Translations under genes and position numbers: made by a program
Notes under the pieces: generated by a model
Databases searched by the model: none
What the model saw: only the letters and a program-made list of their open reading frames with translations
Told to the model about the DNA's origin: nothing
In this document: positions 57,683 through 57,814 of the stretch, piece after piece
Position numbering within the stretch: position 1 is the first letter of the stretch
How the letters are laid out: each line of letters starts with the position of its first letter
Origin: Escherichia coli
Lineage (GTDB): Bacteria; Pseudomonadota; Gammaproteobacteria; Enterobacterales; Enterobacteriaceae
Length of the DNA stretch: 64,000 nucleotides
NCBI RefSeq assembly: GCF_030013595.1
Contig: NZ_CP122768.1
Reading direction: 5' to 3' (one strand)

Positions 57683-57814
57683 TCACCAATATTGAAAATG
57701 TCACACGCAGATAAATCCAACTTTCAATATTGTTAAGTCCCTCACCAATATTGAAAACATGGCGTAGCAAAAAGAAATTTTCAATATTGCTTTATGGATC
57801 ACCAATATTGAAAG
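57683..57814. promoter_or_regulatory. cai/fix divergent control region with five copies of the palindromic octamer CAATATTG
   Basis: CAATATTG at 57687, 57725, 57746, 57782 and 57803; three copies extend to tcaccaatattgaaa; consistent with the described CaiF/CRP/FNR-controlled region. Confidence 0.6.

Follow-up and report, generated by a model that had tools for sequence, protein, structure and literature searches.

The window, that is, the whole stretch of 64,000 nt of Escherichia coli DNA that was analysed, contains the divergent control region of the fixABCX and caiTABCDE operons, whose first genes, fixA and caiT, are separated by a spacer of 472 bp (57592-58063). [quoted passage not shown] The spacer was 100% identical to that of strain 118UI and 92.4% identical to that of K-12-type strains, its allele was present in 547 E. 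coli genomes, and 4726 genomes were 90-95% identical to it over the whole spacer. Compared with K-12, the fix-proximal 248 bp were 98% identical, the cai-proximal 127 bp were 100% identical, and the centre (57840-57936) was hypervariable, with an identity of 66% (64/97). Among Escherichia species, the only fixed elements of the centre were TTGAT (57855-57859), TTCACCC, and the CRP1 half-sites. The hypervariable centre suggests old alleles or recombination in a little-constrained linker. Since K-12 MG1655 also carries five octamers in the same arrangement as the window, results obtained in K-12 transfer to the window.

Table 1. Features of the fixA-caiT control region and the genes that flank it (window coordinates)
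Feature	Position	Strand	Remarks
fixA CDS, first gene of fixABCX	56821-57591	-	ATG at 57591
Predicted fixA core promoter	57676-57704	-	-35 GTGACA (57704-57699), 17-nt spacer, -10 TAAAGT (57681-57676)
Fifth element ATCACCAATATTGAAA, right-type CaiF half-site	57682-57697	+	octamer 57687-57694, without inverted partner
Tandem copies of a 57-bp unit	57706-57813	+	57706-57756 and 57763-57813; 51 nt aligned, 73% identical
fixA-proximal CaiF operator TTTCAATATTG-N13-CAATATTGAAA	57722-57756		exact match to published site
CRP-like site TGTTAAGTCCCTCACC	57731-57746		nested in N13 of the proximal operator; 8/10 to TGTGA-N6-TCACA
fixA-distal CaiF operator TTTCAATATTG-N13-CAATATTGAAA	57779-57813		exact match to published site
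Weaker CRP-like site TGCTTTATGGATCACC	57788-57803		within N13 of the distal operator; 6/10 in the window and 7/10 in K-12
Perfect CRP site TGTGACTAACATCACA	57909-57924		centre 57916.5, -41.5 from the inferred cai start 57958
caiT CDS, first gene of caiTABCDE	58064-59578	+	ATG at 58064

The palindromic octamer CAATATTG was found in the spacer at 57687, 57725, 57746, 57782, and 57803, with gaps of 38, 21, 36, and 21 bp between successive copies. The five coordinates given in the earlier note were all confirmed exactly, and these gaps agree with its description of one single copy and two pairs with a 21-bp spacing. Its statement that three copies share a longer motif was also correct, as ATCACCAATATTGAAA was located at 57682, again 59 bp further on at 57741 (one mismatch), and after another 57 bp at 57798; zero-mismatch matches to the 14-mer TCACCAATATTGAA occurred in the window only at these three places. 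The density of the octamer is far above chance, as had been claimed: a first-order Markov model gave an expectation of 0.029 copies in the 472-bp spacer against the five present, with a Poisson probability of at least five copies of about 1.6e-10, which is conservative because the model was fitted to the spacer with the copies included. The entire 64-kb window contained eight copies versus 1.16 expected, and 0 of 100 dinucleotide shuffles reached eight. The remaining three copies in the window (1017, 3025, and 47767) lacked the TT/AA flanks, were surrounded by GC-rich sequence, and seem to be chance occurrences.

The published binding site of CaiF is TTTCAATATTG-N13-CAATATTGAAA, present as two sites designated F1 and F2 (Buchet et al., 1998, 1999, as quoted in PMC12083890 and PMC3680233), and secondary sources report that purified CaiF binds to both full operators. 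Since both 21-bp pairs match this site exactly, they are the published CaiF operators. The halves of the proximal operator span 57722-57732 (left) and 57746-57756 (right) around a centre at 57739, approximately -70 from the inferred fix start, and those of the distal operator span 57779-57789 and 57803-57813 around a centre at 57796, approximately -127 and -162 from the inferred fix and cai starts, respectively. The 11-nt arms of the distal operator are 100% complementary and 13 nt apart. Four of the five octamers are therefore the cores of published CaiF half-sites, being identical to F1 and F2 in sequence, intergenic region, and number of operator copies, and this part of the cluster is already known biology. 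The proposal in the earlier note that the octamers reflect activator sites accordingly stands for these four copies; the note had overlooked that the pairs are 11-bp inverted repeats and that the predicted fixA core promoter contains the single copy.

The two operators are contained in the tandem copies listed in Table 1. TRF found no tandem repeat in this region of the window, the duplication being too diverged for the program. In Proteus mirabilis, TRF detected a 59-bp period with 2.3 copies, and three full operators together with the fifth element form a regular 59-bp array. The 51-nt direct repeat and the Proteus period together indicate that the operator array arose by tandem duplication of a unit of 57-59 bp. 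Autoregulation of caiF through the same motif was considered and rejected, as the motif had no match at three or fewer mismatches near caiF in an 18-kb locus of the strain.

The consensus sequences of the global regulators are TGTGA-N6-TCACA for CRP and TTGAT-N4-ATCAA for FNR. The octamer CAATATTG does not conform to the CRP consensus, and no octamer or extended repeat fits that of FNR, so the suggestion of the earlier note that the octamers might themselves be global-regulator sites failed. A CRP-like stretch, TGYYA-N6-TCAC, was instead found between the paired octamers, overlapping the left octamer by its initial TG and the right one by its terminal C, and its presence inside each N13 accounts for the "tcacc" extension seen in the earlier note. 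The proximal stretch TGTTAAGTCCCTCACC, which we take to be the published CRP site 2, is centred at 57738.5 (-69.5 from the inferred fix start), and the distal stretch TGCTTTATGGATCACC, presumably the published CRP site 3, at 57795.5 (-126.5). Among Escherichia species, the half-sites of both nested stretches were fixed and the central N6 was variable, which is the pattern expected for CRP.

The start sites of fix and cai reportedly lie 289 bp apart; CRP1 is said to lie at -41.5 relative to the cai start, and CRP2 and CRP3 at -69.5 and -126.5 relative to the fix start. The perfect CRP site TGTGACTAACATCACA, located outside the octamer array at a distance of 100 bp, anchors this geometry, as its centre sets the cai start and, through the reported distance, a fix start at 57669; the two inferred starts correspond to K-12 positions 42325 and 42037, which are 289 bp apart inclusive. 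Because the sequence agrees with the reported numbers at three independent points, the inferred start-site geometry was treated as reliable. The half-sites of TGTGACTAACATCACA were conserved between the window and K-12, and its spacer had diverged. This palindrome with its T-run (57908-57925, minus strand) was flagged as terminator-like by a terminator scan, almost certainly a false call caused by the inverted repeat of the CRP site. For FNR, the main reported route of action is the expression of caiF, in addition to sites nearer cai. The RegulonDB v8 paper likens a CRP pair of fixAp to that of acsP2 and places its proximal member at -69.5.

The predicted fixA core promoter was the only minus-strand promoter-like match returned for the spacer by a promoter scan, and its predicted start at about 57669 agrees with the inferred geometry. 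The -10 hexamer TAAAGT was not conserved beyond the clade of Escherichia, Citrobacter, and Salmonella. The fifth octamer lies within the 17-nt spacer between the predicted -35 and -10 hexamers, at about -18 to -25 from the inferred fix start, and its 11-mer reaches -28. If the more widely conserved block GTTTTATTT is taken as the -10 element, the octamer moves to about -23 to -33. With either choice of -10, the fifth octamer would be placed inside the predicted fixA core promoter.

The fifth copy consists of a right half only (CAATATTGAAA, 57687-57697), and the 16 nt of the fifth element recur unchanged at the right half of the distal operator. As a half-site only, it falls outside the definition of a full CaiF operator. 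A degenerate left partner was sought and rejected, because the best match, at 57663-57674, agreed at only 6 of 11 positions. In contrast to F1 and F2, the fifth octamer is thus a single right-type half-site that has no partner and is located in the predicted fixA core promoter. Two CaiF sites are counted in the secondary sources, and neither a description of a third nor a table of start sites was found in the secondary literature covered; the fifth copy is apparently an undescribed lone half-site.

To follow this element across species, fixA-caiT spacers were extracted from 80 caiT loci of species-representative genomes, and a set of 28 species in 14 genera of Enterobacteriaceae and Morganellaceae was scored. 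The fifth octamer was perfect in 23/28 species and had at most one mismatch in 28/28, and the TCAC prefix was kept in 27/28; because the scored species are phylogenetically related and are not independent events, these counts overstate independence. On the same scale, the known half-sites were perfect in 26/28 (R1, proximal right), 18/28 (L1, proximal left), 19/28 (L2), and 17/28 (R2) species. The fifth element is conserved as strongly as the known sites across enteric bacteria. At least one full operator together with the fifth element was present in all 14 genera, and the six genera that lacked the distal operator retained the fifth element. Its position was also constrained: it was located 93-99 nt from the fixA ATG in 26/28 species and 59 bp from the proximal right half in 22/28, whereas the spacing between the two operators was more variable (55 to 59 bp in the 28-species set). 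In an alignment anchored on the fifth octamer, the columns of the 14-mer were nearly invariant and those up to the next half-site were unconstrained. Within E. coli, the 35-mer 57676-57710 was identical in 5309 genomes, at one place per genome (BLAST). The predicted fixA core promoter thus contains a third right-type element, standing alone, that is under purifying selection.

Eight species from six genera of more distant relatives carried the element in the same conserved context as the fifth copy of E. coli, namely ATAnAnnTAnCAY, then AAATAAnAC, N5, and TCACCAATATTGAA. In Edwardsiella, Hafnia, Serratia sp. H1w, Leminorella, and Limnobaculum, no full operator was present, and a single GATCACCAATATTGAA was the only right-type copy. 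Edwardsiella is reported to carry caiF; a tblastn search of the fetched loci with CaiF gave a match in E. coli only, the flanks being too short to reach caiF. Some of these spacers had further copies. In Budvicia, two right-type elements in direct orientation lay at spacer positions 302 and 329, 27 bp from each other. Leminorella and Limnobaculum carried an extra left-type TTTCAATATTG at spacer positions 25-35, about 28 nt upstream of the fixA ATG, and Limnobaculum had another left-type TTTCAATATTG near the caiT start (630-640). Homologues of caiT with 68-74% identity were found in Shewanella, Ferrimonas, Campylobacter, Desulfovibrio, and Malaciobacter. The Shewanella fixA-caiT spacers (about 940-1150 bp; loci L060-L081 are from Shewanella and Ferrimonas) contained zero copies of CAATATTG, and in the Campylobacter loci no fixA adjoined caiT, so regulation there must differ.

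Other blocks on the fix side were conserved as well. The block TTACAGATATCAC at 57642-57654, which follows the pattern ATAnAnnTAnCAY, was fixed 33-45 nt to the fix side of the fifth octamer in 37/37 species, a set that includes Edwardsiella and Hafnia, and AAATAAAAC (57669-57677) was likewise conserved in 37/37 species. On the minus strand, TTACAGATATCAC reads GTGATATCTGTAA and resembles an extended -10 (TGnTAnnnn), and its position in the inferred fix transcript would be about +15 to +27. This block might serve as a second promoter or be bound by another protein. An RNA element was rejected, as the sole Rfam match was a spurious miRNA with 19.6 bits against a gathering score of 90, and the fold of the fix 5'UTR was no better than that of shuffles (z = 0.16).

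We interpret the octamer cluster as a CaiF operator array consisting of two full operators and a functional fifth element to which CaiF probably also binds, and we assign this reading a probability of roughly 0.85. CaiF, a small helix-turn-helix protein that belongs to the Pfam family CaiF_GrlA, is the specific activator of the carnitine pathway, and it is reported to co-activate both operons together with CRP, with crotonobetainyl-CoA as the effector. In the proposed mechanism, the CRP-like stretch in each N13 would be a CRP dimer site flanked by CaiF half-sites, giving a composite CaiF-CRP-CaiF layout, and under anaerobiosis in the presence of carnitine, CaiF and cAMP-CRP would occupy the composite sites and co-activate both divergent promoters. 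CaiF would also bind the fifth element, which may be a functional and probably ancestral part of the switch; instead of activating fixA transcription, binding at this position could just as well restrict or gate it. From its sequence and conservation, we infer that the fifth element is a real CaiF target, possibly a GrlA-like one.

One alternative is that the octamers are binding sites of CRP or FNR, in favour of which the CRP positions reported for fix, -69.5 and about -126.5, coincide with the centres of the octamer pairs. The octamer resembles neither TGTGA-N6-TCACA nor TTGAT-N4-ATCAA, the CRP-like stretch lies between the octamers, and FNR is reported at caiF and nearer cai, which makes this reading extremely improbable. 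The remaining alternatives concern the fifth octamer and the unit that CaiF recognizes. It is decidedly unlikely that the fifth octamer is a non-functional relic, namely the surviving right half of a third tandem unit that lost its left half when the fixA promoter overwrote it, with the two full operators being sufficient. The operators did arise through tandem duplication, no half-site was found at the left-partner position 57663-57673, and two sites are counted in the literature, as far as the accessible secondary sources go. A relic should decay, however, and the fifth element was perfect in more species (23/28) than three of the four known half-sites, survives amid randomised flanking sequence, and persists in lineages with a single operator, with an equivalent element in lineages that lack a full operator altogether.

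The conservation of the fifth element could instead reflect promoter function rather than CaiF binding. It may be held in place by the fixA core promoter or by another protein, its likeness to a CaiF site being inherited from the duplication, as might be expected for an element between the predicted -35 and -10 with neighbouring fix-side blocks (AAATAAAAC and ATAnAnnTAnCAY) that are equally conserved and not CaiF-like. We consider this quite unlikely: within a promoter, the spacer is normally the region under the weakest sequence constraint, but the conserved 14-mer is an exact CaiF right-type element including its GAA flank, and CAATATTG is kept over the same phylogenetic range as in the known sites. 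For a protein proposed to bind inverted repeats as a dimer, a single half-site is an unusual target, and this problem would vanish if each palindromic octamer were a complete CaiF dimer site, so that a full operator would hold two dimers and the fifth copy would be a complete single-dimer site. The perfect palindrome of CAATATTG and the centre-to-centre distance of 21 bp in the pairs, equal to two helical turns, are consistent with such an arrangement. The conserved element is nevertheless asymmetric, with nearly invariant outer AA (TT on left halves) and an inner flank that differs between right halves (TCAC) and left halves (YYA), and the published description, as far as it is quoted in the secondary sources, is of 11-bp half-sites, so that one dimer per octamer appears rather unlikely. 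We therefore retain the operator array with a functional fifth element as the preferred reading.

Related systems offer partial parallels for such an array. The only relative of CaiF in the PDB is GrlA (4KT5), which is also its only characterised homologue. GrlA reportedly activates LEE1 from a binding site in the spacer that separates the -35 and -10 elements. A protein of the same family as CaiF thus uses, at the LEE1 P1 promoter of EHEC and EPEC, a spacer site comparable to the predicted location of the fifth octamer at fixA. The LEE1 spacer has a suboptimal length of 18 bp, whereas the over-long spacer of 18-20 bp that is typical of GrlA- or MerR-like activation was not found at fixA. Because the predicted fix spacer measures 17 nt and is not over-long, the GrlA analogy is incomplete. 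Moreover, CaiF also uses upstream operators, and none are described for GrlA in the sources covered. MerR-type activators likewise have their site between -35 and -10, but the spacers of their promoters are 19-20 bp long and contain a full palindrome, neither property is seen at fixA, and CaiF is not a MerR-family protein. The tandem CRP sites of acsP2, near -69.5 and -122.5, are at positions similar to those of the fixAp pair according to RegulonDB. Unlike those of acsP2, the CRP-like sites of cai-fix are embedded between the half-sites of a second activator and share edge bases with them.

A further step would be to regard the fifth octamer as the ancestral, primary CaiF target, acting in a GrlA-like manner, with the upstream CaiF-CRP operators as later, duplicated additions found in Enterobacteriaceae and Morganellaceae only. 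We put this forward tentatively, as a possibility that is still doubtful. A 50-bp sequence overlapping the fix mRNA start is said to be needed for cai transcription, and such a requirement could fit a role of the fifth element.

Overall, the region presents mostly known biology with one modest conserved addition: the dense palindrome cluster is an activator array that has already been characterised. If CaiF binds the fifth copy, the textbook two-site model would not describe cai/fix control completely, and CaiF would resemble the virulence regulator GrlA in acting at a core promoter. This would be a specialist refinement and not a new kind of system, with relevance for the engineering of carnitine biosensors based on the fix promoter and for the carnitine metabolism of gut Enterobacteriaceae.
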